DNA of 64,000 nt from Desulfobacterales bacterium (GTDB lineage Bacteria > Desulfobacterota > Desulfobacteria > Desulfobacterales > Desulfosalsimonadaceae), in the NCBI GenBank assembly GCA_007134875.1, contig SLJY01000109.1, positions 6,555 to 70,554 on the forward strand, written 5' to 3'. Shown here piece by piece: positions 5,050 through 64,000 of the stretch. The number at the start of each line of letters is the position of its first letter. Positions within the stretch are counted from its first letter, which is position 1. Under the pieces are notes generated by a model. It worked only from the letters and a program-made list of their open reading frames with translations, was not told the DNA's origin and ran no database searches. The position numbers and the translations under genes are program-made.

Positions 5050-5182
5050 CCATCCGGGTTGTCAAGCAATGTTTTGTACGGAATATAAGGAAGTTGGGCC
5101 CTGCATGGAACCCGGATGCCACAGGCGCATCCGCCGCGATTCGCGAACCGGGAGCCTTTTAAAACAACCCCTTTTCAATGGA

Positions 5183-5198
5183 TGGCACCTGTTTTGCA
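5183..5198 (+). promoter_or_regulatory. sigma-54 promoter (-24/-12)
   Basis: TGGCAC-ctgtt-TTGCA, an exact fit to TGGCAC-N5-TTGCW, ~40 nt upstream of ATG 5237. Confidence 0.75.
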
Positions 5199-5236
5199 AA
5201 GAGAGTTTCCATGGCACTATCCCATGGAGGTTTTCT

Positions 5237-32326: not shown

Positions 32327-33358
32327 ATGTATGGATGGAACACTATGCCAAGACAAGCCCGCCTGGATGCTCCCGGTGCCCTTCACCATATTATGGCAAG
32401 AGGCATAGACGGCGCCCTGATCTTTAAGGATGATAATGACCGGCATTTCTTTTTGAAGCGATTGGGCATAATTTTGGATGAAACCAGTACAGCTTGCTAT
32501 GCATGGGCGCTTCTGCCCAACCATTTTCACTTGCTGATGCGAACCGGTGCTGTTCAAATGGCCACGGTCATGAGACGACTGATGACCGGACATGCCATCA
32601 GCTTCAATAAAAGGCACGATCGCCGCGGTCATTTGTTTCAAAATCGGTATAAATCCATTTTATGCCAGGAAGATACGTATTTTCTTGAACTTGTCCGATA
32701 CATCCACCTGAATCCGTTAAGGGCCAATCTCGTGAATTCCATGGAACAACTCGATACATATCGGTTTACTGGTCACGGGGTTCTCATGGGCAGGTATCAG
32801 TACGACTGGCAATCTATCGATCCGGTGTTATCCGTGTTTGGAGAAGATGCGACCGCGGCCCGGGTGAAATACAGAGAGTTTATAGCAAAAGGAGTGGGTC
32901 AGGGCAGGAGGGATGATCTCACTGGTGGCGGGCTGGTCCGCAGTTCAGGTGGTTGGTTGGCGGTACATCAAATGCGTATGGCAGGGATATATTCCAAAAG
33001 CGATGAACGTATACTGGGAGACAGTGATTTTGTAAATCGCGTGCTCTCGGAGGCGGACGAATCATTTGAAAGGAGATACCATTTTAAAACACGGGGAATT
33101 GATGTCGATTATATTGCTGCAAGGGTGGCTTCGTTGCTGGGCGTCAGGGAAGATGAGGTGTGGGGTGGCGGGAGGAAAAGGAAGGCGGTAATCGCCCGGA
33201 GCCTTATTTGTTACCTTGCGGTTAGGGAATTGAAATCGACCATGGCCTCTTTGGCTCGCCGTTTCAATATATCTTTAGTGGCGGTTAGTAAATCGGTTGA
33301 GCGGGGTGCCAGGATCATTGAAAAGGAAAAATACGATGTCAAAAAGTTAATAAGTTAA
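32327..33358 (+). CDS. REP-associated tyrosine transposase-like protein (IS200/IS605 Y1/HUH fold) with C-terminal DnaA-C-like HTH
   Basis: HUH motif LPNHFHLLM and Tyr context GHLFQNRYKS. C-terminal VIARSLICYLAVRELKSTMASLARRFNISLVAVSKSVERG. The likely true start is ATG 32345 (MPRQARLD). Confidence 0.8.
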   Translation: MYGWNTMPRQARLDAPGALHHIMARGIDGALIFKDDNDRHFFLKRLGIILDETSTACYAWALLPNHFHLLMRTGAVQMATVMRRLMTGHAISFNKRHDRRGHLFQNRYKSILCQEDTYFLELVRYIHLNPLRANLVNSMEQLDTYRFTGHGVLMGRYQYDWQSIDPVLSVFGEDATAARVKYREFIAKGVGQGRRDDLTGGGLVRSSGGWLAVHQMRMAGIYSKSDERILGDSDFVNRVLSEADESFERRYHFKTRGIDVDYIAARVASLLGVREDEVWGGGRKRKAVIARSLICYLAVRELKSTMASLARRFNISLVAVSKSVERGARIIEKEKYDVKKLIS

Positions 33359-48104: not shown

Positions 48105-50021
48105 ATGCTCAAGCGATTCAATCTGAGAACGAGAATGCTGGTTTCCATTTGCGGGGTGCTTCTGCTGACGTTCGCCGTGATTCTGAGCATCGTGGTGCCC
48201 CGATCCCGGGATATGGCCTGGGATGGCGCGACCGAGCGGGCGGAACAGACCGCTAACCACTATGCCAGCCACGTGCGCGCGGAACTGGAAGTGGCAATGA
48301 ATGCCGCGCGCACGGCGGCGCAGGCTTTCGAAGGCATCAAAAATACGGCGGAAGAACCGGACCGGGAGATGCTAAACGGCATTCTCCGGCGGATCCTGGA
48401 GCGCAACCCGGATTTCATCGGAACGTGGACCTGTTAGGAGCCCGATACCCTGGACGGGCGGGACCTGCAGTATGCAGGGACCCGGGGGCACGACGATACG
48501 GGCCGCTTCGTTCCGTACTACAGCCGGGACGACAGTGGCAGGATCGGCCTGGAACCGCTCATGGATTATGATCAGTCCGGCGACGGCGACTATTACCAGC
48601 TCGCATTCCGAAGCGGCAGGGAGACGATCCTGGATCCCTATATCTATCCTATCGGCGGGCGTGACGTTCTGCTCACCTCCGTCGCCGTTCCGATATCTCA
48701 TAACGGGCGGACCGTCGGCGTCGCCGGCATAGACATCGCCTTGTCAGAATTCGAGGAGATGGTGGCGGATATCCGTCCCATGGAGACAGGCTCCGCCTCC
48801 ATCATCGCCAACAATGGCACCTGGGTGGCCCACCCCGCCGGCAACCGGGCGGGAGCCGATATCGGGAGTTCCGGGGAGTGGCGCGAAATCCGCAGGGCAG
48901 CGGCATCGGGGCAGACGTTTTCGACCATTCACCACTCCGAACATCTGGGCGCCGAAGCGGCCCGGTTCATGGTCCCGCTCACGATCGGGCAGACCGACAC
49001 GCCCTGGTCCTTCATGGTGAGCATACCCGTCGGCACCATCATGGAAGCCTCCGATGCCGTGCTCTACGCGTCCATCCTGGTAAGCGTGCTGGCTATTCTG
49101 ATCCTTTCCGGGGTGATCTTTTTCATTGCTAAAAGTATCGCCGATCCCATCAACAGAATATCCGGCGGGTTGAGCGAAGGGTCGAAGCAGGTGCTGTCTG
49201 CTTCCGAAGAGGTGTCCGGTTCCAGCCAGTCGCTGGCCGAGGGCGCTTCCCAGCAGGCTTCGTCACTGGAGGAAACGTCCTCATCACTTGAGGAAATGGC
49301 GTCCCAGACCCGCCAGAATGCCGAGAATGCGGATCAGGCCGACCGCGCCGTCCGGGACAGCGCGAAAATGGTGGAAAGCGGAGTCGAATCCATGACCCGC
49401 ATGGAGGCGGCTATCGGAGAGATCAAGGATTCCGCCGCGGAAACGTCGCGCATCATCAAGACCATCGACGAGATCGCCTTTCAAACGAATCTTTTGGCGC
49501 TGAACGCGGCAGTGGAAGCGGCGCGCGCCGGCGAGGCGGGCAAGGGGTTTGCCGTTGTGGCCGAAGAAGTCAGAAATTTGGCACAGCGGAGCGCCGATGC
49601 CGCCAAAAACACGGCCGAGTTGATCGAAAAGTCCCAAAACAACGCCGATAACGGGGTGCAGGTGGCTTCCGAGGTGTCCGGTCAGCTCTCCGGCATCCAG
49701 GAATCGTCGAAAAAGGTGGCGGTTTTGATCGCCGAAATCGCGGCCGCTTCAAAGGAGCAGGCCCAGGGGATCGATCAGGTTAACACGGCGGTGTCGGAAA
49801 TGGATCGGGTGGTCCAGAAAAACGCGGCCGATTCCGAAGAGACCGCTTCGGCGGCCGAAGAGATGTCATCGCAGGCCGCGGAAATGGAGCGGCTGATTGG
49901 GGATCTGGAGACGGTGATTGCCGGTAACCGCGCGGATCGGCAGACTATGCCGGAACCCGGACATTATCTGCCCGCACCGGAAAGCGCCGGAAGCAAACTG
50001 CTTTTTTGGCGGAAAGAGTGA
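48105..50021 (+). pseudogene. Cache-type methyl-accepting chemotaxis protein interrupted by one in-frame TAG (48435-48437)
   Basis: ORFs 48105..48437 and 48561..50021 share a frame, and the only stop between them is this TAG. Read-through gives TM1, a Cache-like sensor, TM2 and a canonical MA domain ([40 protein letters not shown]). Confidence 0.75.
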
Positions 50022-52404: not shown

Positions 52405-52974
52405 ATGACGATTGCACCCGAACAGAACCCCGAACCGATATTTCCCGAGGACCTGCTGGAAGCGGCCGACCCGTCGCCGGCCGCGGATGCGGCAAGGACA
52501 TGGTACGTGGCCCGTGTGAAAAGCCGGCGTGAAAAGGCCCTGGCATCCTTTTTGTACAGGCGCTCCATCGGCTATTACCTTCCCCTGATGAAACGCCGCC
52601 AATCCGGCAGCAGCCGTATCCGCTACAGCCTGGTACCCGTATTTCCGGGCTACGTCTTTGTATTCGCGGACATCGAGGAGCGCTACAGCGCGTTTACATC
52701 CAACCATGTAAGCCGGATGATCGAAGTCAAAGACCCGGAAACCCTCCTGCAGGAACTTGGCCGGATCCACCGGACCCTGTCCGCCGGGCAGCCGGTTTAC
52801 CCGGTGGAATTCGTGAGCGTCGGCCGCCGCGTCCGTGTCAAATCCGGCCCCATGAAGGACGTGGAAGGGATCGTTGTCCGCAAGGACAAGAAATTCCGGC
52901 TTGTTTTAAACGTCACCACCATCATGCAGTCCGTATCCATCCAGATCGACGCCGACATGGTGGAGCCGGTATAG
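52405..52974 (+). CDS. NusG paralog (NGN + KOW; RfaH/UpxY-like specialised antiterminator)
   Basis: 189 aa. NGN segment WYVARVKSRREKALASFL...LVPVFPGYVFV and KOW segment GRRVRVKSGPMKDVEGIVV. Confidence 0.75.
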   Translation: MTIAPEQNPEPIFPEDLLEAADPSPAADAARTWYVARVKSRREKALASFLYRRSIGYYLPLMKRRQSGSSRIRYSLVPVFPGYVFVFADIEERYSAFTSNHVSRMIEVKDPETLLQELGRIHRTLSAGQPVYPVEFVSVGRRVRVKSGPMKDVEGIVVRKDKKFRLVLNVTTIMQSVSIQIDADMVEPV

Positions 52975-52990
52975 GGGATCATCGGCGCGG

Positions 52991-53015
52991 GTATTGTACT
53001 TTTTACGAAGCCGTC
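52991..53015. repeat. solo MITE terminal repeat
   Basis: TATTGTACTTTTTACGAAGCCGTCA. Confidence 0.6.
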
Positions 53016-53064
53016 AACCTGAAACCTGAAATGCTCACCACACCCGATCAAGGAACAGCATGTG

Positions 53065-54777
53065 ATGGATGAAAAACGCTTTGCAGCCCATGGCGGCCCG
53101 CTTGTAAACCTGATGGTGGATGAACAACGGGCCGCGCTGTTAAAAGAGATTTCCCTCAACCTCCGGGATGTCATCTTAAGCGAACGCAATCTCTGCGACC
53201 TGGAGCTGCTGGCCATCGGCGCTTTTTCGCCCCTCGCCGGCTTCATGACCCGCCCGGACTACGAGTCGGTTCTGGACCGGATGCGCCTCCAGGACAACAC
53301 CCTCTGGCCGGTACCCGTGTGCCTGGATGTCTCCGGTAAAACGGCTAACCAGTTGGAAGCCGGACAGTCCGTGGCCCTGCGCGACGGGGAGGGATTCCTC
53401 CTTGCCGTTATGCATATCGGGGACATGTGGCCGGTGAACCGTGAAAAAGAAGCCGACATGATCTACGAAACCCGGGATCTGTCACATCCCGGGGTCCATT
53501 ACCTATATAAGACATCCGGCGATTATTACATCGGCGGCCAGTTGGAGGTGATCAACCTGCCCGTTCATTTCGATTTCAGGCAGATCCGCCTCCAACCCGA
53601 CGAGATTCGCGCCCAGTACCGGAAGCTTGGCTGGCAGCGGATCGTGGGGTTTCAGACCCGCAATCCCGTTTACCGGCCCCAGTTTGAAATGACCATCCAA
53701 GCCATGCGCCGCGCAAAGGCCAATCTGCTGATCCTGTCCGTGGTCGGCATGACCAAAAAGGATGACTTCGATCATTTCATCCGGGTCCGCTGCAATCGTA
53801 AAGTGGCGGAGCATTACCCGCCCGGCGCCGCCGTCCTGGCGCTTTTGCCCCTGGCGGTTCGCCTGTCCGGCCCCCGGGATGCGGTATTCGACGCCATTAT
53901 CGCGAAAAACTACGGCTGCACCCATTTTATAATCGGCCATGACCATGCATCCCCCGGCCCGGACAGCAGCGGCAACCTCTTTTATCCCGTTGCCCGCGCC
54001 AAGGAAATCGCCGGGTCCCTTGCCGATGAAATCGGCATCGACGTCGTCCTTTTCGAGGAGATGGTCTATCTCCCCTTCGAAGACGAATACCGCAGCGTCG
54101 ATCATGTTCCTGCCGGCGCCCAGACCATATCCCTTTCCGGATCGGATATCCGGCGGCGCATCCGCGACGGCAAAAACATTCCGGACTGGGCGGTCTTCCC
54201 GGAGGTGACCGCCGAGCTCCGCAAGGCCTATCCCCCGCCTTCCATTCAGGGGTTCACCGTGTTTCTGACGGGCCTTTCCGGGGCCGGCAAATCGACCATC
54301 GCCAAGGTGCTTTACTCCAAATTCCTGGAAATCGGCGACCGCCCCGTAACCCTGCTCGATGGCGACATCGTCCGCAGAAACCTGTCATCGGAGCTGTCCT
54401 TTTCCAGGGAGCACCGGGATTTGAACGTGCTGCGCATCGGGTTCGTGGCCAGTGAAATAACAAAGAACCGGGGGGTGGCCATCTGCGCGCCCATCGCCCC
54501 CTACGAGAGCAGCCGCCGAGAGGTCCGCTCCGTCATCGAGGCGTACGGCGGATTTGTCGAGGTCCACGTGGCCACCCCCATCGAAGAGTGCGAAAAGCGC
54601 GACCGCAAAGGCATGTACGCCAAGGCCCGCGCCGGGCTCATCACCGGCTTCACCGGCGTGGACGACCCCTACGAAGTGCCCCGCAATCCCGAGCTCAGCA
54701 TCGATACCACCGCCATCACCCCCGAGGAGGCGGCTCAGGAAGTTATGCTGTTTCTGAGCAAGCAGGGATTTAATTAA
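53065..54777 (+). CDS. ATP-sulfurylase-like domain fused to adenylylsulfate (APS) kinase
   Basis: ORF 53062..54777. The N-terminal domain is FQTRNPVYRPQFEM ... GCTHFIIGHDHASPG and the C-terminal domain is GLSGAGKSTIA, LLDGDIVRRNL, EVHVATPIEECEKRDRKGMYAKAR. Confidence 0.85.
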   Translation: MDEKRFAAHGGPLVNLMVDEQRAALLKEISLNLRDVILSERNLCDLELLAIGAFSPLAGFMTRPDYESVLDRMRLQDNTLWPVPVCLDVSGKTANQLEAGQSVALRDGEGFLLAVMHIGDMWPVNREKEADMIYETRDLSHPGVHYLYKTSGDYYIGGQLEVINLPVHFDFRQIRLQPDEIRAQYRKLGWQRIVGFQTRNPVYRPQFEMTIQAMRRAKANLLILSVVGMTKKDDFDHFIRVRCNRKVAEHYPPGAAVLALLPLAVRLSGPRDAVFDAIIAKNYGCTHFIIGHDHASPGPDSSGNLFYPVARAKEIAGSLADEIGIDVVLFEEMVYLPFEDEYRSVDHVPAGAQTISLSGSDIRRRIRDGKNIPDWAVFPEVTAELRKAYPPPSIQGFTVFLTGLSGAGKSTIAKVLYSKFLEIGDRPVTLLDGDIVRRNLSSELSFSREHRDLNVLRIGFVASEITKNRGVAICAPIAPYESSRREVRSVIEAYGGFVEVHVATPIEECEKRDRKGMYAKARAGLITGFTGVDDPYEVPRNPELSIDTTAITPEEAAQEVMLFLSKQGFN

Positions 54778-54896
54778 AGGGTCAATTAAGGGTCAGAGTG
54801 GCATTTCATCGTCAACGGAAATCGGGATGTCCGATAGCGTAGCGACTTTTTGCGGGTGCATCAGGGTTTGCCGAATATACACAAGGAATTTGAGGC

Positions 54897-54925
54897 TTGA
54901 CAAACGCACGGGCAGAAAGTAAAAT
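54897..54925 (+). promoter_or_regulatory. sigma-70-type promoter
   Basis: TTGACA(54897-54902)-N17-TAAAAT(54920-54925). Confidence 0.6.
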
Positions 54926-54940
54926 AAAATGTTTATACTG

Positions 54941-54960
54941 TTTTATAAGCGGCAGGTTAA
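54941..54960 (+). promoter_or_regulatory. shared early-leader element TTTTATAAGCGGCAGGTTAA (ops-like)
   Basis: Matches 63721-63740 at 17 of 20 positions. Both lie ~10-25 nt downstream of a sigma-70-type -10 box. The core GCGGCAG compares with the RfaH ops core GGCGGTAG. Confidence 0.4.
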
Positions 54961-55012
54961 TCGCGTTTTACGATTGTTATCATCGGAAAGGCATGTTACG
55001 CAAAAGGCCAAA

Positions 55013-55062
55013 AAAGCGGTTTTCGTTCAGGCGCTAATGCAGGGGGAATGGAACGGACGATG
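55013..55062 (+). promoter_or_regulatory. conserved leader cassette, copy d
   Basis: AAAGCGGTTTTCGTTCAGGCGCT ... GCAGGGGGAA ... ATG 55048/55060 of an 18-22-codon mini-ORF. Confidence 0.45.
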
Positions 55063-55112
55063 CATCATCTCATCACCATAGGACTGCCCGGTACGGCGGG
55101 GAAGGCTGCGGC

Positions 55113-55358
55113 ATGATTAATATCGGGTTGATCATTGCCGCCGGGGTTCTCGTCATCTATCTGGTATTGGGACCTATCGTCATTATGGGCATCTATTCCT
55201 TTCTGGACCGGATGGCCGAAAAGGCGGGAGAGCAGGAAAAAACGGATTCGACGCCCCGGGGCAAAAAAGATCCGGCGTTGTGGACTTCCAGGGATGTCCG
55301 GCGCTATATGCTAAAACACCGGCGGTTTCGTTCCGGCGATGGCGATTATAGATTATAA
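55113..55358 (+). CDS. small membrane protein (81 aa)
   Basis: N-terminal TM MINIGLIIAAGVLVIYLVLGPIVIMGIYSFL and a basic C-terminus. Its ATG overlaps the mini-ORF stop (ATGA). Confidence 0.45.
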   Translation: MINIGLIIAAGVLVIYLVLGPIVIMGIYSFLDRMAEKAGEQEKTDSTPRGKKDPALWTSRDVRRYMLKHRRFRSGDGDYRL

Positions 55359-55389
55359 TGGATGAGTGCAGCAGGTAAAAAAACCGCTT

Positions 55390-57066
55390 ATGCGAGATTT
55401 CTTAAAAAAGTGGAAAAAATATTTTGTATTTGTCGCCCTGCTGAGTTGTTTCATCAACATTCTTCAACTCACCTTCGCCTTTTACATGTTCACGATCTAT
55501 CGCAACATCGTTGCGAGTCATCACGAGCCGTCCCTGTATACAATTACCGTCATCGCGATCTACGCCCTTGTGAGCCTGGGCTTTTTCAACTACCTGCGCA
55601 CGCGCCTGCTCAACACGGCGGGCGTGGACCTCGACCAGTCCATGGGCTCGTCGGTATTCCGGCACGTAATCAGAATGTTTTCCATTCCCGCGGCCAACCG
55701 GTACACGCAGGGCGTCAGCGACCTGACCACGGTTCGCAATTATTTCAATAACCCGGGCCTCTATGCCCTGTTCGACGCCCCGTGGGCGCCGCTGTACCTG
55801 CTTTTGATCTATTTTTTCCATCCGGTTCTGGGGCTCGTGGCCACCGCCGGGGCGGTTTTGATTTTTATTCTGAGCCTCCTGCAGGACAGGCTGACACGCT
55901 CTCGTCTGGGCCGTGCCAATGCGAACTACGCGCGCAACCAGCGCATGGTCGATACCGCGCTCCGGAACGCCGAGACGATCAACGCCATGGGTATGGCTTC
56001 CGACATCAGCGGGCGCTGGGAGCGTTCCAACGAGTCGGTCATCGCGGACCAGACCATCGCCAGCCGTTACGCCGGCGCCCTGCAGAGCATGACCCGGCCT
56101 GTTCAGATCATGATGCAGGTGCTCATCTACGGCATTGGCGCGTATTACGCCATTACCGCCATGTTCGATGTCGGACTGATGGTGGCCTCGGCGATTATCA
56201 TGGGCCAGGCGGTCGGCCCCATTATGCGGGCCATGGGTGCATGGCGGTTCACCGTCCAGGCCGGAGCGGCCTACGCCCGACTCAACCGGTTTTTAGGCGC
56301 CATTTCCCGCCAGGGCGAAAAAATGACCCTTCCGCCGCCGGAAGGGCGCATCGAATCGCGCAACATCATGCTCAGAATCGGCGAGACCCGCCTGCTTGAA
56401 AATGTATCCTTTGCCCTTTCTCCCGGCGATATAATGGGTGTGGTCGGGCCTTCCGGGGCGGGAAAAAGCACCCTCTGCCGGATCGTTACGGGCGCATGGC
56501 CCGTTACGGCGGGTGAAATCCGTCTTGACGGCGTGGACTTGTTTTATTGGGATCAGGACGCCCTGGGCCGCCACGTTGGCTATCTTCCCCAGGAGGTGGA
56601 GCTTTTCCGCGCTTCGATAGCCGAAAATATCGCCCGCATGGGAGACGTGGACGAAGAAGCGGTGCGGGGGGCGGCTGAGGCTGCCGGTATCCGTCAGTGG
56701 ATCGAGTCGCTTCCGGACGGCATGCACGCAAAACTCTATGGTTCGGACGGCATCGCCCCGTCCGGCGGCCAGCGTCAGCGTATCGGGCTAGCACGCGCCC
56801 TTTACGGCGGCGCCCGGGTGCTGGTGCTTGACGAGCCCAATTCGAACCTGGATGCGGAAGGCGAAGCGGCCCTGACGGCCTTTCTGCGGAAAATCCGCGA
56901 AGGTCGTTTCGCAACCTGCATCATTGTAACGCACAAGCAGGAAATCCTCCTGTCGGCCGATAAAATCCTGGTCCTGGCCGACGGAAAGACCACTGCTTTC
57001 GGGCCGAGGGATAAGGTGTTCCGCCATCTTGCGGTCGCGCAATCTGCCGGCAGGAAAGCGGTGTAG
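55390..57066 (+). CDS. type I secretion ABC transporter (permease/ATPase, PrtD/HasD type, no C39 peptidase domain), paralog 1
   Basis: ORF 55366..57066 (GTG). ATG 55390 (MRDFLKKWKKYF) aligns with the N-terminus of paralog 2 (MREFLRKWMKFF). GPSGAGKSTL, SGGQRQRIGLARAL, VLVLDEPNSNLD. Confidence 0.85.
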   Translation: MRDFLKKWKKYFVFVALLSCFINILQLTFAFYMFTIYRNIVASHHEPSLYTITVIAIYALVSLGFFNYLRTRLLNTAGVDLDQSMGSSVFRHVIRMFSIPAANRYTQGVSDLTTVRNYFNNPGLYALFDAPWAPLYLLLIYFFHPVLGLVATAGAVLIFILSLLQDRLTRSRLGRANANYARNQRMVDTALRNAETINAMGMASDISGRWERSNESVIADQTIASRYAGALQSMTRPVQIMMQVLIYGIGAYYAITAMFDVGLMVASAIIMGQAVGPIMRAMGAWRFTVQAGAAYARLNRFLGAISRQGEKMTLPPPEGRIESRNIMLRIGETRLLENVSFALSPGDIMGVVGPSGAGKSTLCRIVTGAWPVTAGEIRLDGVDLFYWDQDALGRHVGYLPQEVELFRASIAENIARMGDVDEEAVRGAAEAAGIRQWIESLPDGMHAKLYGSDGIAPSGGQRQRIGLARALYGGARVLVLDEPNSNLDAEGEAALTAFLRKIREGRFATCIIVTHKQEILLSADKILVLADGKTTAFGPRDKVFRHLAVAQSAGRKAV

Positions 57067-57216
57067 ACCCATTGACCGATGCGGGCTGCACCGCTGTATT
57101 TGCAAATCTTATAAATAGTGCCCGGAGGAAAACCGGGGTTTTTCGTCAAGTCAAGAACCGTGAAAATTTTAACAGCAGGAATACTTCGCGTATTTTGAGG
57201 GTTAAAATTTTGATGC

Positions 57217-57381
57217 ACTCGTAAAGGTCGCGATCTGACGGCTTTGTAAAAAGTTCAGGATTAAGGCTTGCGCGATTTCGAAGAATGCAATGTACTTGGC
57301 GTACGTGCATGTTTACAAGGCGTAAGCCGCAAATTCTGAAAAATCGCGCGTAACGCAGATATTGGACTTTTTACGAAGCCG
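57217..57381. repeat. MITE-like repeat copy
   Basis: Nearly collinear with 11618-11761: CGGCTTTGTAAAAAGTTCAGGATTAAGGCTTGCGCGATTTCGAAGAATGCA ... GATATTGGACTTTTTACGAAGCCG. Confidence 0.85.
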
Positions 57382-57414
57382 TCAAATTTGAGCCGGACGC
57401 AAAAAAGGGCGGAA

Positions 57415-57462
57415 AAGACGGTTTTCGGTCAGGCACTAGTTAATCAAGGATGGTCCATTTTG
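57415..57462 (+). promoter_or_regulatory. conserved leader cassette, copy e
   Basis: AAGACGGTTTTCGGTCAGGCACT ... AATCAAGGA, ending at the proposed TTG start 57460 of the TolC-like gene. Confidence 0.45.
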
Positions 57463-58869
57463 GTACGAAAACGATTGTTTGGCAGAGCACTGCTGATTTT
57501 TGCCGGTTGCTGCCTGTGGCTGTTTGTCGCACTACCCGTAGGAGCTGAAACGGCTGCCGAAGACGGCAACGATGCGGGCGTCGAGGCCTACACCCTGGAG
57601 CAGGCCATCGATCGCGCTCTTTCGGTCAATCCCCGCATTCAGGGGGCCCGCTCGGAGATCGACAAGGCCGATTCCGATATTGCGCTGCGCCGTGGTGAGT
57701 ATTTCCCCACGCTCAGCGCCCAATCATACATCGAGCGGATCGATAACATCCGGGCGCGGGGGCAGGAAGACCCGGATTATCTCGACCAGCAGATCATGGG
57801 CGTTACCTTTCGCCTGTCCCAACCCCTGTTTGCCGGTATGACCATATTTAATTCCCACCAGAAGTCGATTCTGGACAGGGCCCGCATCGATGCCTGGAGC
57901 CGCCAGCAGAATCATGACCTGGCCCTGGAGGTCCGATTGCATTTTCTGGAATTGTACAAGGCGCGCGAGGATTCCAAAAGTTTCCGCGACGCGGTGCGGC
58001 GGCTGGAAACCGGCGTGGAGGCGGCGGAGGCTTTTCACGAGCGCCGCCTGATGCCGTATACGGAGGTGCTCCAGGCATACGTGGATCTCGCCGAGGCCCG
58101 GCAGCAGCTCAGCCAGGCCGAAAACCTCGTGGAGACCACCAAGGTCCGGCTCAACATCCTGCTGGGTTTTTCGGTGCACCGGGATATTTCCTACCTGGGC
58201 GATCTTGAGCGGGGCGATCCCCTTTCCGAGTCCTTCCGGGAGCTGCTGGAATACGCCTACCGGCACCGGCCTGAGCTGGAAGTGGCCCAAAAGAGCGTTG
58301 AAATGGCCGAAAAGGACCGGAATATCGCTCGCGGCCGCTACCTGCCGGAGATCAATGCCACGGTGGACTACCACATCCGGGATGTCGACTACGATGAGCG
58401 GGGGGAGCAATTCGGTCAGACGATTGATCGCGACCGCCGGAACTACTACTGGACCGCCGGTATCCGCCTCAACTGGGAGTTCGGTTTAGGCGGGCAGCAG
58501 ATCCACCGGCATTCCAAAGCGAACCACGAGCTTCAGCGCCTCCGTCATAACCGGGAGCAGGCCCGCAACGAGGTAACCGGTGAAGTGCGGACCTACTTCA
58601 TGAACATCCGGGAGGCCGCCGACCGCATACGGACCATGGAGGCGGCGATTGAACACGCCCGGCAGGGCTACAGCCGGGCGGAAAGCCGCTTCGATCTCCG
58701 CATGGGAACCATATCGGAGCTTCTGGATGCCCAGGCGCGCCTGAGCCGCACCGAGGCCGGCTACAACGAGGCGGTGGCGGACTACTTATCCAACCGGGCA
58801 AGGCTCTACCATGCCATGGGCCGCGATAAGCGGCTGCTGGCGGAGGCAACGGGGTCTGAAAACGATTGA
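57460..58869 (+). CDS. TolC-family outer membrane efflux protein
   Basis: ORF 57388..58869 (its TTG lies inside the MITE). TTG 57460 is preferred for its AAGGA SD and the signal peptide VRKRLFGRALLIFAGCCLWLFVALPVGA. Two TolC-type repeats. Confidence 0.8.
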   Translation: MVRKRLFGRALLIFAGCCLWLFVALPVGAETAAEDGNDAGVEAYTLEQAIDRALSVNPRIQGARSEIDKADSDIALRRGEYFPTLSAQSYIERIDNIRARGQEDPDYLDQQIMGVTFRLSQPLFAGMTIFNSHQKSILDRARIDAWSRQQNHDLALEVRLHFLELYKAREDSKSFRDAVRRLETGVEAAEAFHERRLMPYTEVLQAYVDLAEARQQLSQAENLVETTKVRLNILLGFSVHRDISYLGDLERGDPLSESFRELLEYAYRHRPELEVAQKSVEMAEKDRNIARGRYLPEINATVDYHIRDVDYDERGEQFGQTIDRDRRNYYWTAGIRLNWEFGLGGQQIHRHSKANHELQRLRHNREQARNEVTGEVRTYFMNIREAADRIRTMEAAIEHARQGYSRAESRFDLRMGTISELLDAQARLSRTEAGYNEAVADYLSNRARLYHAMGRDKRLLAEATGSEND

Positions 58870-58958
58870 ACGGCCGTTTTCGCCAAGGGTCCGCATAAAC
58901 GTTCATACTACCCAATTCATCCCCGGAACCGATTGTTCGGGGATCAGCAGGAGTCAAT

Positions 58959-60644
58959 ATGCGCGAGTTTCTGAGAAAGTGGATGAAGTTTTTCTGGATA
59001 GCGGGTTTTTTCAGCCTGTTTATCAACCTGCTTTACCTGACGTTTCCCATCTACATGCTGGCTGTCTACGAGCGCGTGCTATACAGCTATTCTATGTCGA
59101 CGCTCACCACGCTGACCATCATGGCGGCCACGGCGCTCATTGTGCTGGGCGGCCTTGACTTTCTCAGGTCCCGGCTGCTGATCCACGTCGGCGTTGATAT
59201 GGACAATACGCTTTCCCGTCCGGTATTTTCCGAAATGCTCAACGACCGCTGCCGCATCGGCGGGCTGGGATACACCGAGGGGCTCAGGGACGTCAATACC
59301 CTGCGCAATTTTTTCTCCGGCAATGCCGTATTCGCGATCTTCGATGCCCCCTGGACGCCGCTTTATATCCTGGTGATGTTTTTCATGCACCCCGTGCTTG
59401 GATATTTCGCCATTGCCGCGGCGGTGATTCTTTTTCTTCTGGCGCTTTTCCAGGAGATCCTGACCCGCCGTAAGATGGATCGGTCCGGCGCCATGGAATC
59501 CGTATCGCACCAGTTCGCCAACACCTGCATGCGAAATGCCGAAGTGATCAGCGCGATGGGCATGACGCCCGGGGTTATCAACCGATGGCGGGAAACCGGC
59601 GACGAGGCCCTTGCGCTGCGCAACGAGGCTAATTCCGTGTCCGGGGCCATGAGCGCCGCCACCACGAGTTTTCGCTCCGCCATGCAGGTTCTGGTTTTCG
59701 GATTGGGTGCTTACCTGGTTTTGCAGAACCAGTCCACCCCGGGCATCATTATCGCCGCTTCCATCATTATGCGGCAGGCCCTCGGCCCGGTGGAAAAGAT
59801 TATCGGAAGCTGGCGTCAGACGGTGGAAGCCCGCGCGGCATACCGCCGGCTGGACGAGCTGATTCAGGCCGCGCCCGCAGCCGAAGAAATGGAGCTGCCC
59901 GAACCTGCCGGCCGCCTGGAAGCCGAGGGCGCCTCGCTATCCCTGGAAGGCAAGCCCATCCTCCAGAACATTGCATTTGGCATCGACGCCGGCTCGATGT
60001 TGGGCTTGATCGGTCCTTCCGGTGCGGGAAAGACAACGCTCTGCCGGCTGATCCTGGGACTGTGGCCTGCCATGGGCGGCAAGATACGGCTAGACAGCTA
60101 CGATGTCCATGCTTGGAATCAGCAGGAGCTGGGCGCCTATATTGGCTATCTGCCACAGGATCCGGAGCTTTTTCCCGGCACCGTCAGCGAAAACATCGCC
60201 CGGATGGGGGATGTGGACCCTGAAAAGGTCGTAGCCGCCGCGCGGACCGCCGGAATCCATGAGATGGTGCTCAAGCTGCCCAAAGGCTATGATACCTGGG
60301 TGGGTGACGACGGCGTGCGTTTGTCCGGCGGCCAGCGGCAGCGGGTCGCACTGGCCCGGGCGCTTTACGGCGACCCGAGGCTCGTGGTTCTGGACGAACC
60401 CAACTCCAACCTGGACGATGCCGGCGAAAAAGCCCTCATGGAGGCCCTGGAGCGGCTGCGCGAGAAAAAGACGACTGTTGTGATTGTCACCCACAAGCCG
60501 GCATTGCTTTCCGGCGTGGACAATATCCTGATGCTCAAGGACGGCCGTGTCGCGCATTTCGGGCCGAGAGACGAGGTTTTCAGGAAGCTGGCCTCGCAGC
60601 AGCAGCAGGAGAGAGGGCACAATCCCGGGGCAGGCGGGCGGTGA
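58959..60644 (+). CDS. type I secretion ABC transporter (permease/ATPase), paralog 2
   Basis: 561 aa with GPSGAGKTTL, LSGGQRQRVALARAL, LVVLDEPNSNLD, VVIVTHK. Confidence 0.88.
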   Translation: MREFLRKWMKFFWIAGFFSLFINLLYLTFPIYMLAVYERVLYSYSMSTLTTLTIMAATALIVLGGLDFLRSRLLIHVGVDMDNTLSRPVFSEMLNDRCRIGGLGYTEGLRDVNTLRNFFSGNAVFAIFDAPWTPLYILVMFFMHPVLGYFAIAAAVILFLLALFQEILTRRKMDRSGAMESVSHQFANTCMRNAEVISAMGMTPGVINRWRETGDEALALRNEANSVSGAMSAATTSFRSAMQVLVFGLGAYLVLQNQSTPGIIIAASIIMRQALGPVEKIIGSWRQTVEARAAYRRLDELIQAAPAAEEMELPEPAGRLEAEGASLSLEGKPILQNIAFGIDAGSMLGLIGPSGAGKTTLCRLILGLWPAMGGKIRLDSYDVHAWNQQELGAYIGYLPQDPELFPGTVSENIARMGDVDPEKVVAAARTAGIHEMVLKLPKGYDTWVGDDGVRLSGGQRQRVALARALYGDPRLVVLDEPNSNLDDAGEKALMEALERLREKKTTVVIVTHKPALLSGVDNILMLKDGRVAHFGPRDEVFRKLASQQQQERGHNPGAGGR

Positions 60645-60713
60645 TGACCGTTTGAGCGTCTGCTGCAGGAAGCATTCAAAAGAATCAATATTGTAACGCA
60701 AGGTGGAACCATT

Positions 60714-62045
60714 ATGGCAGAAACAGAGAAACCGGCGCAGGAAAAAAGCCTGCGGTCCAACCCGAAGCCGCTTATCATTGCCGGCTTCGCAGTGATTCTG
60801 GTGTTTTTCGGGGGTATAGCGGCCTGGTCGGCCTTTCTTCCCTTTTCCGGGGCGGTGATTGCAACAGGCGTGGTCAAGGTCTCCCATGAGCGTCAAACCG
60901 TCCAGCACCTCGAAGGCGGGATCGTTGAAGACATTTTCGTCCGGGAAGGGGATTCCGTTGATTCCGGCGATGTGCTCATGCGCCTTCGACGCCCGGAAAC
61001 CGATGCCCAGGTATCCATGATCCGCAGCCAGATCCGGGCCCGAACGGCCCAGGCGGCCCGTCTCCGGGCGGAAAGCCGGATGGCGGACGAAATCCAGTGG
61101 CCGGAGTCGATTCTTTCCCGTCAGGATGATGATCCCGAAGTAGCCGACGTGATGGAAATGGAGGGCGAAATCTTTACATCCCGGCGCAATACCCTCAATG
61201 GCCGGATTTCCCTGCACGAATCACAGGTTGCCCAGTTGCAGGAGCAGGTAATGGGAATGCAGGAGGAGTATGAGGCCCAGAAGGAAATCGTGGAAACCCT
61301 GGAAGAGGAAATCGAGGCCAAGCAGTCCCTCTACGAGGCGGACCATATCGACCGGACCGAAATTCTGGAGTTGACCCGCCGCCTGGCCGAGCACCGAGGC
61401 CGGGCCGGACGGCTCCGCCAGGACATCGCGGAGGCCCGCCAGAAAAAGGAGGAGCTGCGCCTCCAGATCGTAAACCTCCGGGATGACTACGTGGAAGAGG
61501 CTTTTACCCAATTGGGGCGCGTGCAGGACGATATTTACGAGCTCAACGACAGGCTGCTTCCCCAGCTGGACGCCCAGAGCCGGCTGACGCTCCGTGCGCC
61601 CATTGCCGGCGAGGTCATCAACATGAAAGTCCACTCCCGAACTACCGGCGTCATCCAGCCGGGGCAGGAAATTCTGGATATCGTTCCCAGGGAGGCCGAG
61701 CTGATCGTGGAGGCCCGTGTTCAGCCCGACGATATTACCAATATCATGAAGGGCCAGTCCGTCCGCGTGCAGATAACGCCCTTCAACCGGCGGACCACGC
61801 CGCCGGTCAACGGGGTGATCGAGCATGTTTCCGGCGACCATGTTACCCGCGAGACGGCCCGCGGCGAGGAGAAATATTACGTCACCCACATCCGCATCGA
61901 CGAGGCGGAACTCAATGAAGCGGGTATTTATCTTTCTCCCGGCATGCCGGCCGTAAGCTACATCGAAACCGAGGAGCGCACGATACTGGGGTATCTCCTT
62001 GATCCGATCATCGAGATGATGGATCGTTCCCTCCGGGAGCCCTAA
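60714..62045 (+). CDS. HlyD-family type I secretion membrane fusion protein
   Basis: 443 aa with an N-terminal TM, GVVKVSHERQTVQHLEGGIV, a long coiled coil, and LRAPIAGEVINMKVH. Confidence 0.88.
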   Translation: MAETEKPAQEKSLRSNPKPLIIAGFAVILVFFGGIAAWSAFLPFSGAVIATGVVKVSHERQTVQHLEGGIVEDIFVREGDSVDSGDVLMRLRRPETDAQVSMIRSQIRARTAQAARLRAESRMADEIQWPESILSRQDDDPEVADVMEMEGEIFTSRRNTLNGRISLHESQVAQLQEQVMGMQEEYEAQKEIVETLEEEIEAKQSLYEADHIDRTEILELTRRLAEHRGRAGRLRQDIAEARQKKEELRLQIVNLRDDYVEEAFTQLGRVQDDIYELNDRLLPQLDAQSRLTLRAPIAGEVINMKVHSRTTGVIQPGQEILDIVPREAELIVEARVQPDDITNIMKGQSVRVQITPFNRRTTPPVNGVIEHVSGDHVTRETARGEEKYYVTHIRIDEAELNEAGIYLSPGMPAVSYIETEERTILGYLLDPIIEMMDRSLREP

Positions 62046-63588
62046 GCGCGGGGTTCCTTTCGATCGCCCGTCGCAAATGCTCGATCATGGTCAGGGTGTG
62101 GGGGGTAACGGGCGCCCTGGAAAGGTCCTTGATCAGCAATATTTCCCCCAACTCGCGTTCCCCGGCCAGCAAAGGGAGCCGGAGCCGGAGCAGGGGGCGG
62201 CAGCCGTCGGCGTTTTTTCCCGCCTGATGGGCGCCTGCCCCGGGTTCCGTCGTCCGGAACCCGTTTCGCGACCATGCCTGCCGGATTCCGCCGGTTTCGC
62301 CGGTGCTTCCGGCAATGGCTTTTCCGGCGGACTTCCCGTCGCCTGTGCCGATGCGGATCTCGGCAAAATCCATATCCATCTCTTCAAGCGCGCGGCAGAT
62401 GTTTTCCCACATCGCCTGCATATCGGGAGAACCGGTCACCGCCACCTGGAGGTTCAAAAAACGCCTGCGGCGCGGCGCAACCCCGGTGACAAAGGAAAAA
62501 TCTCCCAGCCAGCTCCGGAATTTTTCACCGTCGATGTAGCTGAAATATCCCATCACCTTCAAAAAGGCAAAAATCAGTACGCCGATGCCCAGCAGGAGCA
62601 CGAACAGGCCGAATCGTTCGCTTTTTACGTGCATCAGCGCCAGCGAATAGATCCCGATGGCCAGCGTCAGGCAATAGAGAAGCAGCAGCGCCTTTCTGCT
62701 GGAAAAGCCTATTTTGAGAAGGTGGTGGTGGATATGCCCGCAGTCTGCTTCCATGGGGTTTCTTCCCAAAACGACCCGTCGGATGGGCGAAAAGACGGCC
62801 TCGAACACGGGCAGGCTCATGGCCAGAAGCGGAATGAGCAGCGCCGCGCCCACCTGTCCTTTAACGGACCCCATAATCGAAAAAGCCGCGATGCAGTAGC
62901 CCAGAAAATAGCTGCCGCTGTCGCCCAGAAACAATTTGCCGCCGTTTTCCCGGAAGTTGAAAGGGAGAAAGCCGGCGATTGATCCCGCCAAAAGGATAAA
63001 AAGTCCGGCAAGGGGTAGTTGCCCGGTGGCTGTGAGAAAGACGCCCATTACCACGCAGGCGAACAGCGTGATGCCCGAGGCCAGGCCGTCGAGTCCGTCG
63101 GCCAGGTTCACGGCGTTGACCAGCAGCAGAAACCAGAAAACGGTAAGCGGCAGGTTGATCCACGGATTGGCGGAGATGTCGATATCGAAGGGAAGGGCGA
63201 TGAATGCCCCGATCACAATCCCGCCGGCGTATGCGGATAGCGCCGCAATAACCTGCAGGGCCAGCTTGGGCCACGGCCCCAGCCCCCACACATCGTCTAC
63301 GAACCCGGTGACGAAGCAGGTGAAGGCGCCTGCCAGGAAAAACAAAAGCGCGCCGTCTTCGGTAAGCGGGCTCCGGATATCGGGCCAGAACAGGGCGGTG
63401 GCGGTTATCGCCGCCAGAAAGGAAAGAAAAATCCCAAGCCCGCCGATTCGCACGGCGGTTTCCAGATGAAGCTTTCTGCTGCCCGGAGCGTCGGTGGCGC
63501 CCAGCCGCATCCCTATGCGCCGGACGGCCGGGCAGAGGACGAGCGAAACGGTAAAGGCGATGAAAAATGGTATCAGCAGTATACTCAT
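62008..63588 (-). CDS. WecA/MraY-family polyprenyl-phosphate sugar-1-phosphate transferase with ~190-aa C-terminal extension
   Basis: 526 aa. The N-terminal ~330 aa are polytopic with DAPGSRKLHLETAVRIGGLGIF and NAVNLADGLDGLA. The C-terminal soluble domain is unrecognised. Converges on and overlaps the HlyD gene by 38 nt. Confidence 0.8.
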   Translation of the reverse strand: MSILLIPFFIAFTVSLVLCPAVRRIGMRLGATDAPGSRKLHLETAVRIGGLGIFLSFLAAITATALFWPDIRSPLTEDGALLFFLAGAFTCFVTGFVDDVWGLGPWPKLALQVIAALSAYAGGIVIGAFIALPFDIDISANPWINLPLTVFWFLLLVNAVNLADGLDGLASGITLFACVVMGVFLTATGQLPLAGLFILLAGSIAGFLPFNFRENGGKLFLGDSGSYFLGYCIAAFSIMGSVKGQVGAALLIPLLAMSLPVFEAVFSPIRRVVLGRNPMEADCGHIHHHLLKIGFSSRKALLLLYCLTLAIGIYSLALMHVKSERFGLFVLLLGIGVLIFAFLKVMGYFSYIDGEKFRSWLGDFSFVTGVAPRRRRFLNLQVAVTGSPDMQAMWENICRALEEMDMDFAEIRIGTGDGKSAGKAIAGSTGETGGIRQAWSRNGFRTTEPGAGAHQAGKNADGCRPLLRLRLPLLAGERELGEILLIKDLSRAPVTPHTLTMIEHLRRAIERNPALRAPGGNDPSSR

Positions 63589-63682
63589 ACTCTATCCGGC
63601 AGTGCGTTTCCCGCACGGTTGAGTTGTTGGCGCGTTTTGCCTTCCTGCCGTTTATCCGATGGAAAGCCGGTTGAATTGTTGC

Positions 63683-63711
63683 TTGATTTCAGGGCCCGGA
63701 ACGTTTATATA
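63683..63711 (+). promoter_or_regulatory. sigma-70-type promoter
   Basis: TTGATT-N17-TATATA, followed by the shared leader element at 63721. Confidence 0.45.
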
Positions 63712-63720
63712 TGATCCTTT

Positions 63721-63740
63721 ATTTATAAGCGGAAGGTAAA
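63721..63740 (+). promoter_or_regulatory. shared early-leader element ATTTATAAGCGGAAGGTAAA (ops-like)
   Basis: Matches 54941-54960 at 17 of 20 positions, in the same position relative to a -10 box. Confidence 0.4.
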
Positions 63741-63960
63741 ATTCAAGAAAATATATATTAAACAGGATCGTTTTGCAATGCCGCTGCAGTGTATTTTTTT
63801 TCGGGGGCCGGATGGCGATGCACGCCCGGTGCATGGCGGGTTTTCGGAAGGACGGGCTGCCGCTGGCTTTCGGCCCGGTTCATCCGCCCGGCGCTTCGAT
63901 GCGCCGGAGCAAAAGCCCCATGAGCCCGAACATAAACCGGGGCCGGAACATAAAACGGCT

Positions 63961-64000
63961 ATGCGGGTTCTCCACGTATTCAAGACCAATTACCTGCAGC
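63961..64000 (+). CDS. possible start of a glycosyltransferase gene running off the window
   Basis: ATG 63961 gives MRVLHVFKTNYLQ, resembling the N-termini of GT-B glycosyltransferases (M[RK][IV]LH[VF]xKT). The frame is open from 63778 to the window end. Only 13 codons are visible. Confidence 0.3.
   Translation, partial: MRVLHVFKTNYLQ

Follow-up and report, generated by a model that had tools for sequence, protein, structure and literature searches.

The genes described here lie at the 3' end of a 64,000-nucleotide stretch (the window) from a Desulfobacterales bacterium of the family Desulfosalsimonadaceae (assembly GCA_007134875.1, contig SLJY01000109.1, positions 6,555 to 70,554), and they probably form an island for a cell-surface coat. 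A first-pass annotation of positions 52405-64000 had listed a NusG paralog, an adenosine 5'-phosphosulfate (APS) kinase fusion, a type I secretion system (T1SS) with two ATP-binding cassette (ABC) paralogs and glycosyltransferases (GTs), and proposed that they make and export a sulfated glycoconjugate or glycoprotein. Its gene list was borne out: the open reading frame (ORF) list, Pfam and NCBIfam agree on every named gene, its strand and its coordinates. On the forward strand, a specialized NusG paralog (52405-52974) is followed by a bifunctional sulfate adenylyltransferase/APS kinase, or 3'-phosphoadenosine 5'-phosphosulfate (PAPS) synthase, Sat-CysC (53062-54777), by a small single-pass membrane protein of 81 residues (small81; 55113-55358) and by the four genes of the T1SS: a first ABC exporter (ABC1; 55366-57066), a TolC-family outer-membrane channel (57388-58869), a second ABC exporter (ABC2; 58959-60644) and an HlyD/AprE-type periplasmic adaptor (60714-62045). 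A WecA-like gene on the reverse strand (62008-63588) converges on the HlyD gene with a 38-bp overlap (62008-62045), and the first GT4 gene of a glycan operon, whose domain was assigned by Pfam on the extension of the locus, starts on the forward strand at 63778 or 63961 and runs off the window at 64000. Only flagellar, chemotaxis and cyclic di-GMP/signaling genes and a tetratricopeptide-repeat (TPR)-like protein lie 5' of 52405, so the island begins at the NusG paralog.

Three further contigs carry the same locus, one from an ENA metagenome (L001) and two from metagenome-assembled genomes (MAGs) at NCBI (L002 and L014). In both L001 and L014, 8/8 window proteins are 100% identical, and L001 prolongs the locus 9.2 kb past the window end, so that the stretch from 52405 to the contig end comprises 16 genes and ~20.8 kb. 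The added genes encode, in order, a 455-aa GT4, a 394-aa GT4, Wzm, Wzt, a 475-aa DUF4214-methyltransferase, an 820-aa two-module GT4 and a protein headed by DUF4214. The glycosyltransferase start that the first-pass annotation had read at the window end is therefore the GT4 gene from 63778 or 63961, with glycan genes continuing beyond it, and the extension past 64 kb that it had suggested as a check yields further GTs, a Wzm/Wzt exporter and, after the glycan genes, a plausible candidate for the T1SS substrate. In the MAG GCA_003568005.1 (L002 1-2400 compared with L001 7000-9700), everything from the NusG paralog through the WecA-like gene is 100% identical, the first GT4 is just 86.5% identical and the gene after it is unrelated. 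Glycan genes are therefore exchanged among strains, a pattern typical for O-antigen loci.

Taken with its extension, the locus has the genes expected of an O-polysaccharide pathway of the ABC-transporter-dependent type; the domains are assigned directly and the chemistry is predicted from them. The WecA-like protein (526 aa) belongs to the WecA/MraY superfamily of polyprenyl-phosphate sugar-phosphate transferases (PF00953, 125 bits). It scores 106 bits against the WecA equivalog model TIGR02380, under the cut-off of 326, and carries a ~180-aa C-terminal extension that has no Pfam match at E <= 1. We regard it as the likely initiator of the glycan. Wzm matches ABC2_membrane at 79.6 bits, and Wzt combines ABC_tran with a C-terminal Wzt_C cap-binding (carbohydrate-binding) module (67.6 bits, cut-off 30.4), its best PDB match being the Aquifex O-antigen transporter 8DKU (E = 5e-63). 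In the 475-aa protein, an N-terminal DUF4214 and a coiled-coil-like stretch accompany a methyltransferase domain of class I (residues 290-430), and the two GT4 modules of the 820-aa protein find mannosyltransferases as their best PDB matches. By inference from these architectures, the 475-aa methyltransferase would act as the chain terminator and the 820-aa GT as the polymerase.

The components of a T1SS of the PrtD/AprD type are present in the window: an ABC permease/ATPase, an HlyD-family adaptor and a TolC-family outer-membrane protein. Both ABC proteins exceed the TIGR01842 cut-off of 510 bits (567.9 for ABC1, paralog 'a'; 668.3 for ABC2, paralog 'b'), and the adaptor reaches 349 bits against TIGR01843 (cut-off 209). 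The channel is recognized by two Pfam OEP repeats (184 bits), stays under the cut-off of the narrower TIGR01844 (134 bits against 225) and would measure 469 aa from an alternative start at 57460. ABC1 and ABC2 are 45% identical, with Walker A, signature and Walker B motifs intact in both. The hallmark of the cassette is the 81-aa protein, whose family has 37 representatives detected with HMMER. Its members share a transmembrane (TM) helix followed by a KDPALW..DVRxY motif (alignment A2); the tyrosine-containing tail of the window protein (...SGDGDYRL) is not conserved among them.

This cassette is clade-specific, conserved in Desulfobacterales and set in polysaccharide loci. We examined it in the window and in four other contexts, L132, L133 (Desulfobacula toluolica Tol2, FO203503 1.636-1.645 Mb), L134 and L135; polysaccharide genes adjoin it in 5/5, and in 5/5 the gene immediately upstream of the 'a'-type ABC gene encodes the small protein. 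The four others share one layout, in which the small protein, two to three ABC paralogs, TolC and HlyD have polysaccharide genes on one or both sides: rml genes and Wzx in L132, a GT4 and an epimerase in L133, Wza/Wzc in L134, and rml genes with GT4s in L135. L132 is orthologous to the window gene for gene (small protein 57%, ABC1 67%, TolC 50%, ABC2 70% and HlyD 65% identity). Across L132-L135, orthogroup 'a' is 49-67% and orthogroup 'b' 47-71% identical, and overall, members of one ABC orthogroup ('a', 'b' or 'c') are 47-74% identical, against 33-54% for members of different orthogroups. Such stable orthogroups point to an old duplication with both copies kept, as one would expect of a heteromeric exporter; the atypical MARTX T1SS likewise retains two distinct ABC proteins, RtxB and RtxE (PMC3034196). 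A cassette of multiple ABC paralogs plus a small protein appears undescribed.

Two features of the related cassettes stand apart from the window. A third ABC paralog is present in L133 (13514-15184) and in L135 (13567-15237); it has no LSGGQ signature and its Walker A is altered to GPSS[SV]GKT, so it may represent a degenerate, regulatory ATP site. In addition, an unannotated protein of ~150 aa (..WFxxVPV..F..CTT..) is conserved 5' of the cassette in L132 (3340-3807) and L133 (8068-8496) and has no counterpart in the window.

The first-pass annotation had assigned a sulfated glycoconjugate or glycoprotein to this exporter. We judge a glycan-binding protein, and not a glycoconjugate, to be the most likely cargo. 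The earlier reading that the window itself contains neither a T1SS substrate nor a sulfotransferase held when we searched the rest of the window, where none of the genes encodes either. The candidate lies in the extension, past ~430 bp of AT-rich DNA after the 820-aa GT gene. This DUF4214-headed gene has a promoter-like site (10/12 consensus positions), a leader of ~270 nt and a strong ribosome-binding site, AAGGAGGAG; it begins MTKDLVQQYYVGFYGRPADPEGLEFWADKVD..., and its product has no signal peptide.

When metagenomes were scanned with the first 73 residues of this product, 70 loci were returned. Its closest relative, in L017, is 62% identical at the N-terminus, where DUF4214 is clear (42.7 bits); it is 1001 aa long, has a pI of 4.05, no cysteine and five GGxGxD motifs, and ends in ..DANFIFA. 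A second relative, in L059, matches the query residues at 47%, is 1040 aa long and contains Pfam HemolysinCabind (8.5e-25). Full-length relatives thus carry GGxGxD/HemolysinCabind repeats and hydrophobic C-termini (..DANFIFA, ..NFTNNFA), and they share the acidic, cysteine-free character of repeats-in-toxin (RTX) surface-layer (S-layer) proteins (PMC3034196). Among the 30 loci that span 8 kb or more, eight include homologs of the methyltransferase, the two-module GT4 or Wzm, six include T1SS ABC/HlyD genes and two include both. In L059 the order is TolC, ABC, HlyD, DUF4214 methyltransferase, two-module GT and DUF4214/RTX protein. L017 (5420-11724) has three DUF4214-headed genes in tandem (1001, 327 and 486 aa), and L019 (2866-4494) encodes a DUF4214 protein that includes a carbohydrate-binding module similar to Wzt_C (E = 4e-6, which is under the Pfam cut-off). 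Adjacency, the missing signal peptide and the RTX-type relatives make it plausible that the DUF4214-headed protein is the T1SS substrate. We also compared the DUF4214 domain of the methyltransferase with that of the putative secreted protein, and discarded the idea that they are close copies of each other (29% identity over 51 aa, E = 0.17).

The 189-aa NusG paralog that heads the island has the NGN and KOW domains of its family. Pfam scores the NGN domain (PF02357) at 38.5 bits (cut-off 22.2) and the KOW domain at 19.9 bits, slightly under its cut-off of 22.3. The best NCBIfam model is UpxY (NF033644; 89.2 bits, under the cut-off of 100), followed at a distance by LoaP (NF033641; 48.8, cut-off 125) and RfaH (TIGR01955; 48.7, cut-off 144.5), and with 29.7 bits against a cut-off of 135.7 for TIGR00922 the protein is distinct from housekeeping NusG. 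An AlphaFold2 (AF2) model (predicted local distance difference test score [pLDDT] 91, predicted template modeling score [pTM] 0.86) consists of an NGN domain, a linker helix and a KOW domain predicted as a five-stranded beta-barrel (residues 131-188, pLDDT >90). In Foldseek the model aligns over its full length to NusG and to activated RfaH, and its NGN domain matches those of NusG and RfaH.

Relatives of this protein form ~100 clusters of 42-90% identity from Desulfosalsimonas and other Desulfobacterales. The first-pass annotation had noted that NusG paralogs usually accompany long polysaccharide or secretion operons, and this generalization applies here: in 5/6 other contexts examined, the relatives lie in, next to or at the head of polysaccharide loci. 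At 50-57% identity, they are found beside exosortase/exopolysaccharide (EPS) genes (L003), beside NeuB/CMP-sugar genes (L004), with GT clusters (L010-L012) and with a WbaP/WecA-type gene (L013); a relative at 65% identity (L005) is surrounded by housekeeping genes. Across the Desulfobacterales clade the proteins keep an N-terminal extension (residues 1-30; 52405-52494 in the window) with the pattern M-T-L-x3-QNPxPxFPxDLL, for which we know of no counterpart in RfaH, UpxY or LoaP. This N-terminally extended NusG clade appears undescribed.

Promoter-like sites precede small81/ABC1, the TolC gene and the GT operon. The first-pass annotation had placed a sigma-70 promoter and a long leader ahead of the small ORFs, and both were found: TTGACA-17-TAAAAT at 54897-54925 (+) agrees with the consensus at 11/12 positions, as a consensus match only, and a leader of ~180 nt separates it from the small81/ABC1 unit. 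As for the small ORFs themselves, the 81-aa one belongs to a conserved family and stands, and the 50-aa one (54929-55081) lies inside the predicted leader and is unsupported as a gene.

The leaders of the small81/ABC1 unit and of the GT operon share a 19-nt motif, TTTATAAGCGG[C/A]AGGT[T/A]AA, identical at 17/19 positions. The first copy, TTTATAAGCGGCAGGTTAA, occupies 54942-54960, and the second, TTTATAAGCGGAAGGTAAA, occupies 63722-63740, directly past a promoter-like site (TTGATT-17-TATATA) read by eye. Both lie on the forward strand immediately 3' of -10-like boxes, and 17 identical positions were reached in 2/400 dinucleotide shuffles (p ~0.005). The motif could be an ops-like recruitment site for the NusG paralog (compare PMC11685472), or an operator, and remains a lead. 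A match to its core, AAGCGGNAGGT, upstream of the L016/L017 DUF4214 gene was dropped because 2-3 matches are expected by chance in the ~1.5 Mb of loci. An Rfam scan of 50-64 kb returned zero matches at E <= 1, and the RNA of the T1SS leader folds no better than its shuffles (z = +1.5), which leaves a riboswitch or a LoaP-type RNA element unsupported. Between ABC1 and TolC, a GC-rich hairpin with T-runs on both strands (57121-57137) resembles a terminator, again by consensus match only. It is at a site like this that an antiterminator would matter.

Sat-CysC starts 87 nt past the NusG paralog. It joins PUA_2, ATP-sulfurylase and APS_kinase domains in one chain, scores 819 bits against NF004040 (cut-off 669) and has a readable P-loop, GLSGAGKST. 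The first-pass annotation took it for an extra PAPS synthase serving the neighboring glycan and secretion genes. In a scan of one genome per species, we found 46 orthologs (53-83% identity), all in Desulfobacterales-type genomes, and 0/46 orthologous loci adjoin a NusG paralog, a T1SS or these glycan genes. The common neighbors are instead a CysQ-like (inositol-monophosphatase-family) gene upstream and, in several genomes, a UDP-glucose/GDP-mannose dehydrogenase downstream (L089, L092, L090, L095, L121 and L124, ~9.1-13.0 kb in each). The order NusG-Sat-CysC recurs only in one close relative (L007-L009), whose NusG paralog is 74% identical; there, in L007, toxin-antitoxin and IS200 genes follow Sat/CysC in place of the T1SS. 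The L132 genome has Sat-CysC on a separate contig (L090), although it contains the same T1SS cassette. Since the orthologs occupy other contexts and the pairing with NusG is limited to a close relative, the enzyme is, judged from these loci, a conserved gene of the lineage that came to lie behind the NusG paralog in this genus; co-conservation with glycan and secretion genes was not seen.

The core of the first-pass proposal, a sulfated product, also gained no direct evidence. Across the 16 genes from 52405 to the contig end, including the 9.2 kb past the window, there is no Pfam sulfotransferase domain (Sulfotransfer_*), and segments of these genes lacking a domain assignment yield no sulfotransferase even at E <= 1. 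Nor is a sulfotransferase present among the 25 commonest families of the 117 neighbors of Sat-CysC orthologs. With no sulfotransferase here and the PAPS synthase placed elsewhere in 46 genomes, sulfation of this glycan is unsupported. To our knowledge, a sulfate reducer has no assimilatory need of PAPS, so Sat-CysC probably supplies some sulfation reaction; nothing ties such a reaction to this glycan. The pairing of a NusG paralog with a PAPS synthase appears undescribed.

With slightly better than even confidence, we lean toward a reading in which the island makes a cell-surface glycan and secretes a large acidic DUF4214 protein that would dock on the capped glycan, with the NusG paralog in control. 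The coat island of this Desulfosalsimonas-like sulfate reducer would then have four cooperating parts. The WecA-like enzyme, mannosyltransferase-like GT4s, methyltransferase terminator and Wzm/Wzt would build and export an O-antigen-type capped glycan. The small TM protein, two non-redundant PrtD-type ABC paralogs, TolC and HlyD would export the DUF4214-headed protein encoded after the glycan genes. Outside the cell, the N-terminal DUF4214 region might dock on the glycan, by analogy with the surface proteins RsaA and Psh. Finally, as its family suggests, the NusG paralog may keep RNA polymerase processive over long operons with internal terminator-like sites, and the 19-nt element in both operon leaders is a candidate for its recruitment site. 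The PAPS synthase would ride behind the NusG paralog.

Secretion and glycan genes are clustered in Caulobacter as well. There the N-terminal domain of RsaA binds O-antigen, and RsaDEF exports RsaA (PMC11026435). In Pseudomonas putida, the RTX-DUF4214 protein Psh is secreted by an AprD-type T1SS, the psh gene lies between an O-antigen operon and a T1SS operon, and >80% of Psh homologs adjoin O-antigen or T1SS genes (preprint of September 2026, 10.64898/2026.09.02.748959).

Several observations weigh against the coat reading. The DUF4214-headed gene is assembled for its first 73 codons, every assembly ending there (~200 bp in), so the size, RTX repeats and C-terminal signal of its product are inferred from relatives; tandem DUF4214 paralogs like those in L017 could plausibly have broken three independent assemblies inside the gene. 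The 73-aa fragment itself scores 20.5 bits for DUF4214, under the Pfam cut-off of 23.2. Neither the L132 nor the L133 cassette has a DUF4214 gene within 10 kb, and the cassette is thus not tied to this substrate family. The assembled stretch contains no lipid A ligase (WaaL) gene, and the PAPS synthase is assigned no role. The 19-nt motif was found post hoc, has two copies in total and is not conserved in L132 or L007. Lastly, the binding of Psh to an O-antigen cap is predicted by modelling only (10.64898/2026.09.02.748959).

Another explanation is that the T1SS has a different cargo, such as polysaccharide-processing enzymes or adhesins or, less likely, a non-protein product, and that DUF4214 lies nearby incidentally. 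The L132 and L133 cassettes, which sit in differing polysaccharide loci and have no DUF4214 gene within 10 kb, speak for this, as do the polysaccharide settings of L134 (Wza/Wzc) and L135 (rml genes and GT4s); moreover, a T1SS with a single substrate would not usually have two to three ABC paralogs and a small TM protein. A precedent is the PrsDE T1SS of Rhizobium leguminosarum, encoded in the pss region, which exports the EPS glycanases PlyA and PlyB. We nevertheless consider a different cargo unlikely: in the window organism the DUF4214 gene is the only nearby gene with substrate features, T1SS genes accompany DUF4214-headed proteins in 6/30 independent loci of at least 8 kb, and the ABC and HlyD proteins match curated protein-T1SS models. 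The island might also be a chance neighborhood, with the NusG/Sat-CysC pair, the T1SS cassette and the glycan operon as independent units in a variable region. Such independence would fit the separate promoter-like sites before small81/ABC1, TolC and the GT operon, the lack of co-conservation of Sat-CysC with the rest, the toxin-antitoxin and IS200 genes that replace the T1SS after Sat/CysC in L007 and the swapping of glycan genes among strain variants. It does not fit the cassette and polysaccharide genes occurring together in 5/5 contexts, the relatives of the NusG paralog that lie among or beside glycan genes in 5/6 other contexts, the linkage of the DUF4214 gene to the same methyltransferase/GT/Wzm module in eight loci or the 19-nt motif common to the T1SS and GT operon leaders. 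Chance therefore seems quite improbable to us, and the first-pass view of the block as a real, functionally linked island rather than a random gene set holds.

Two further explanations give the PAPS synthase a function within the island. In one, which can coexist with the coat reading, Sat-CysC feeds an unseen sulfotransferase and the NusG paralog drives the whole set toward a sulfated glycoconjugate or glycoprotein. An APS-kinase fusion in an organism that does not need PAPS for assimilation hints at sulfation, and the gene follows the NusG paralog by 87 nt both here and in the relative with the 74%-identical NusG paralog. In several genomes, its ortholog is flanked by a CysQ-like PAP phosphatase on one side and a UDP-sugar dehydrogenase on the other, a glycan-flavored context, and the habitat is apparently hypersaline, where anionic glycans are common. 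The searches described above tell the other way, with no sulfotransferase in the 16 genes (~20.8 kb) or their unassigned segments at E <= 1 and none in the 25 commonest neighbor families; so do the 0/46 species genomes that place Sat-CysC beside a NusG paralog, T1SS or these glycan genes, the separate contigs of cassette (L132) and Sat-CysC (L090) in one genome and the promoter-like site that divides the T1SS genes from Sat-CysC here. Together these make a sulfated product doubtful. The other explanation takes the combination of PAPS genes, T1SS and small ORF as an echo of raxPQ/raxSTAB/raxX (PMC4216712, PMC6637879), in which case a tyrosine of a small peptide would be sulfated and the T1SS would export the peptide. 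The tail of the 81-aa protein, ...SGDGDYRL (D-G-D-Y), does resemble the RaxX GGDY site. However, the family conserves the TM helix and KDPALW motif and not the tyrosine tail, the protein begins with an N-terminal TM helix, there is no RaxST-like sulfotransferase, and the ABC proteins are PrtD-type without a C39 peptidase domain. We rejected this explanation, to which we give almost no credence, because the tail is not conserved and the 81-aa protein is membrane-bound.

A bolder version of the coat reading would combine its parts into one undescribed envelope-coat machinery of Desulfobacterales, in which a heteromeric PrtD-type ABC pair or trio with a dedicated small membrane subunit is hard-wired into polysaccharide loci. 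In this haloalkaliphile, a PAPS synthase transcribed together with the lineage-specific NusG paralog would couple the exporter to an O-antigen-like glycan, sulfated and capped with methyl, on which an acidic DUF4214-headed S-layer-type protein docks. We think it improbable that all of these elements apply together.

Three features elsewhere in the window deserve mention. A gene for a methyl-accepting chemotaxis protein (48105-50021, +) is interrupted by an in-frame TAG at 48435-48437 (..GTWTC*EPDTLDG..), a position at which dCache domains usually carry Trp; it is a nonsense mutation, a pseudogene or a sequencing error. Inside the flagellar cluster, an ORF at 32327-33358 (+) encodes IS200-like Y1 transposase and DnaA-C helix-turn-helix domains and coincides with a low-GC patch (GC 0.49-0.51 against ~0.58 elsewhere). 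At the edge of the same cluster, divergent from a sigma-54 activator, an 897-aa protein (5069-7762, +) with a signal-peptide-like segment and a TPR-like look has no Pfam match at 1e-5.

If the coat reading is right, the anchoring of a T1SS protein on an O-antigen-type glycan would extend beyond Caulobacter RsaA and Pseudomonas Psh and would reach anaerobic sulfate reducers from saline sediments, a group whose cell surfaces have hardly been studied. A cultured relative, Desulfobacula toluolica Tol2, would allow tests of the questions that it raises: why the cassette keeps two to three ABC paralogs and a small protein, what ligand DUF4214 binds and how a NusG clade that is neither UpxY nor RfaH targets its operons.

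Each part of the island has known counterparts. Like UpxY, RfaH and LoaP, the NusG paralog consists of NGN and KOW domains and is clearly separate from housekeeping NusG, and, as with UpxY, its gene opens a surface-polysaccharide/secretion locus and has relatives in or heading other glycan loci. Unlike all three, it falls under the curated cut-offs and bears a conserved 30-residue N-terminal extension. Its KOW domain is modeled as a beta-barrel, in contrast to the autoinhibitory alpha-hairpin of RfaH, and where UpxY loci have UpxZ as a second gene, no UpxZ-like gene is present and the PAPS synthase occupies that place. That synthase invites comparison with rhizobial NodPQ/NodH and Xanthomonas RaxPQ/RaxST, in which a PAPS-forming enzyme is likewise encoded beside secretion or glycan genes. 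Here, in contrast, the sulfotransferase that defines those systems is absent from the visible stretch, and the enzyme is a conserved lineage gene rather than a locus-specific extra copy. For annotation, this means that a PAPS synthase beside glycan genes is no proof of sulfation, the gene being widespread and prone to change its address in Desulfobacterales.

For the glycan genes, we take the E. coli O8/O9a-type pathway (WecA, WbdA/B/C, WbdD, Wzm and Wzt) to be the match. Both would have a WecA-superfamily initiator, single-module GT4s with a two-module GT4, a methyltransferase with a coiled coil (here the candidate terminator), Wzm, and Wzt with a cap-binding module. The methyltransferase of the island differs in having an N-terminal DUF4214 and no kinase domain, and the initiator is not a WecA equivalog and has an extra C-terminal domain of ~180 aa; WaaL is missing from the assembled stretch. 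For the exporter, the Vibrio MARTX T1SS (RtxB, RtxE, RtxD and TolC) is the only precedent known to us with two ABC proteins, distinct from each other and both kept. The MARTX proteins are HlyB-type, whereas those of the island are PrtD-type without the N-terminal C39-like domain and are accompanied by a small TM protein and, in some genomes, by a third ABC paralog.

The two closest precedents concern the system as a whole. Like the RsaA system of Caulobacter crescentus, the island has a PrtD/AprD-type T1SS with secretion and glycan genes together, and relatives of the candidate cargo are ~1000 aa long, acidic and cysteine-free, with RTX-type repeats. Here too, an N-terminal domain is proposed to bind an O-antigen-type glycan of the ABC-transporter-dependent pathway. 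The Caulobacter S-layer system differs in that its N-terminal domain has the RsaA fold rather than DUF4214, in using the single RsaD in place of two ABC paralogs and a small TM protein and in having no NusG paralog and PAPS synthase at its head. The second precedent is Psh. Secretion of Psh by its T1SS was shown in P. putida, and glycan binding is proposed. The synteny in the preprint is mainly gammaproteobacterial, whereas this locus is from Desulfobacterales and its T1SS has multiple ABC paralogs. DUF4214 is C-terminal and RTX N-terminal in Psh, whereas DUF4214 is N-terminal here, in L017 and in L059. What the two share is the arrangement, in which the gene for a DUF4214 protein adjoins O-antigen-type genes and a T1SS or is placed between them.

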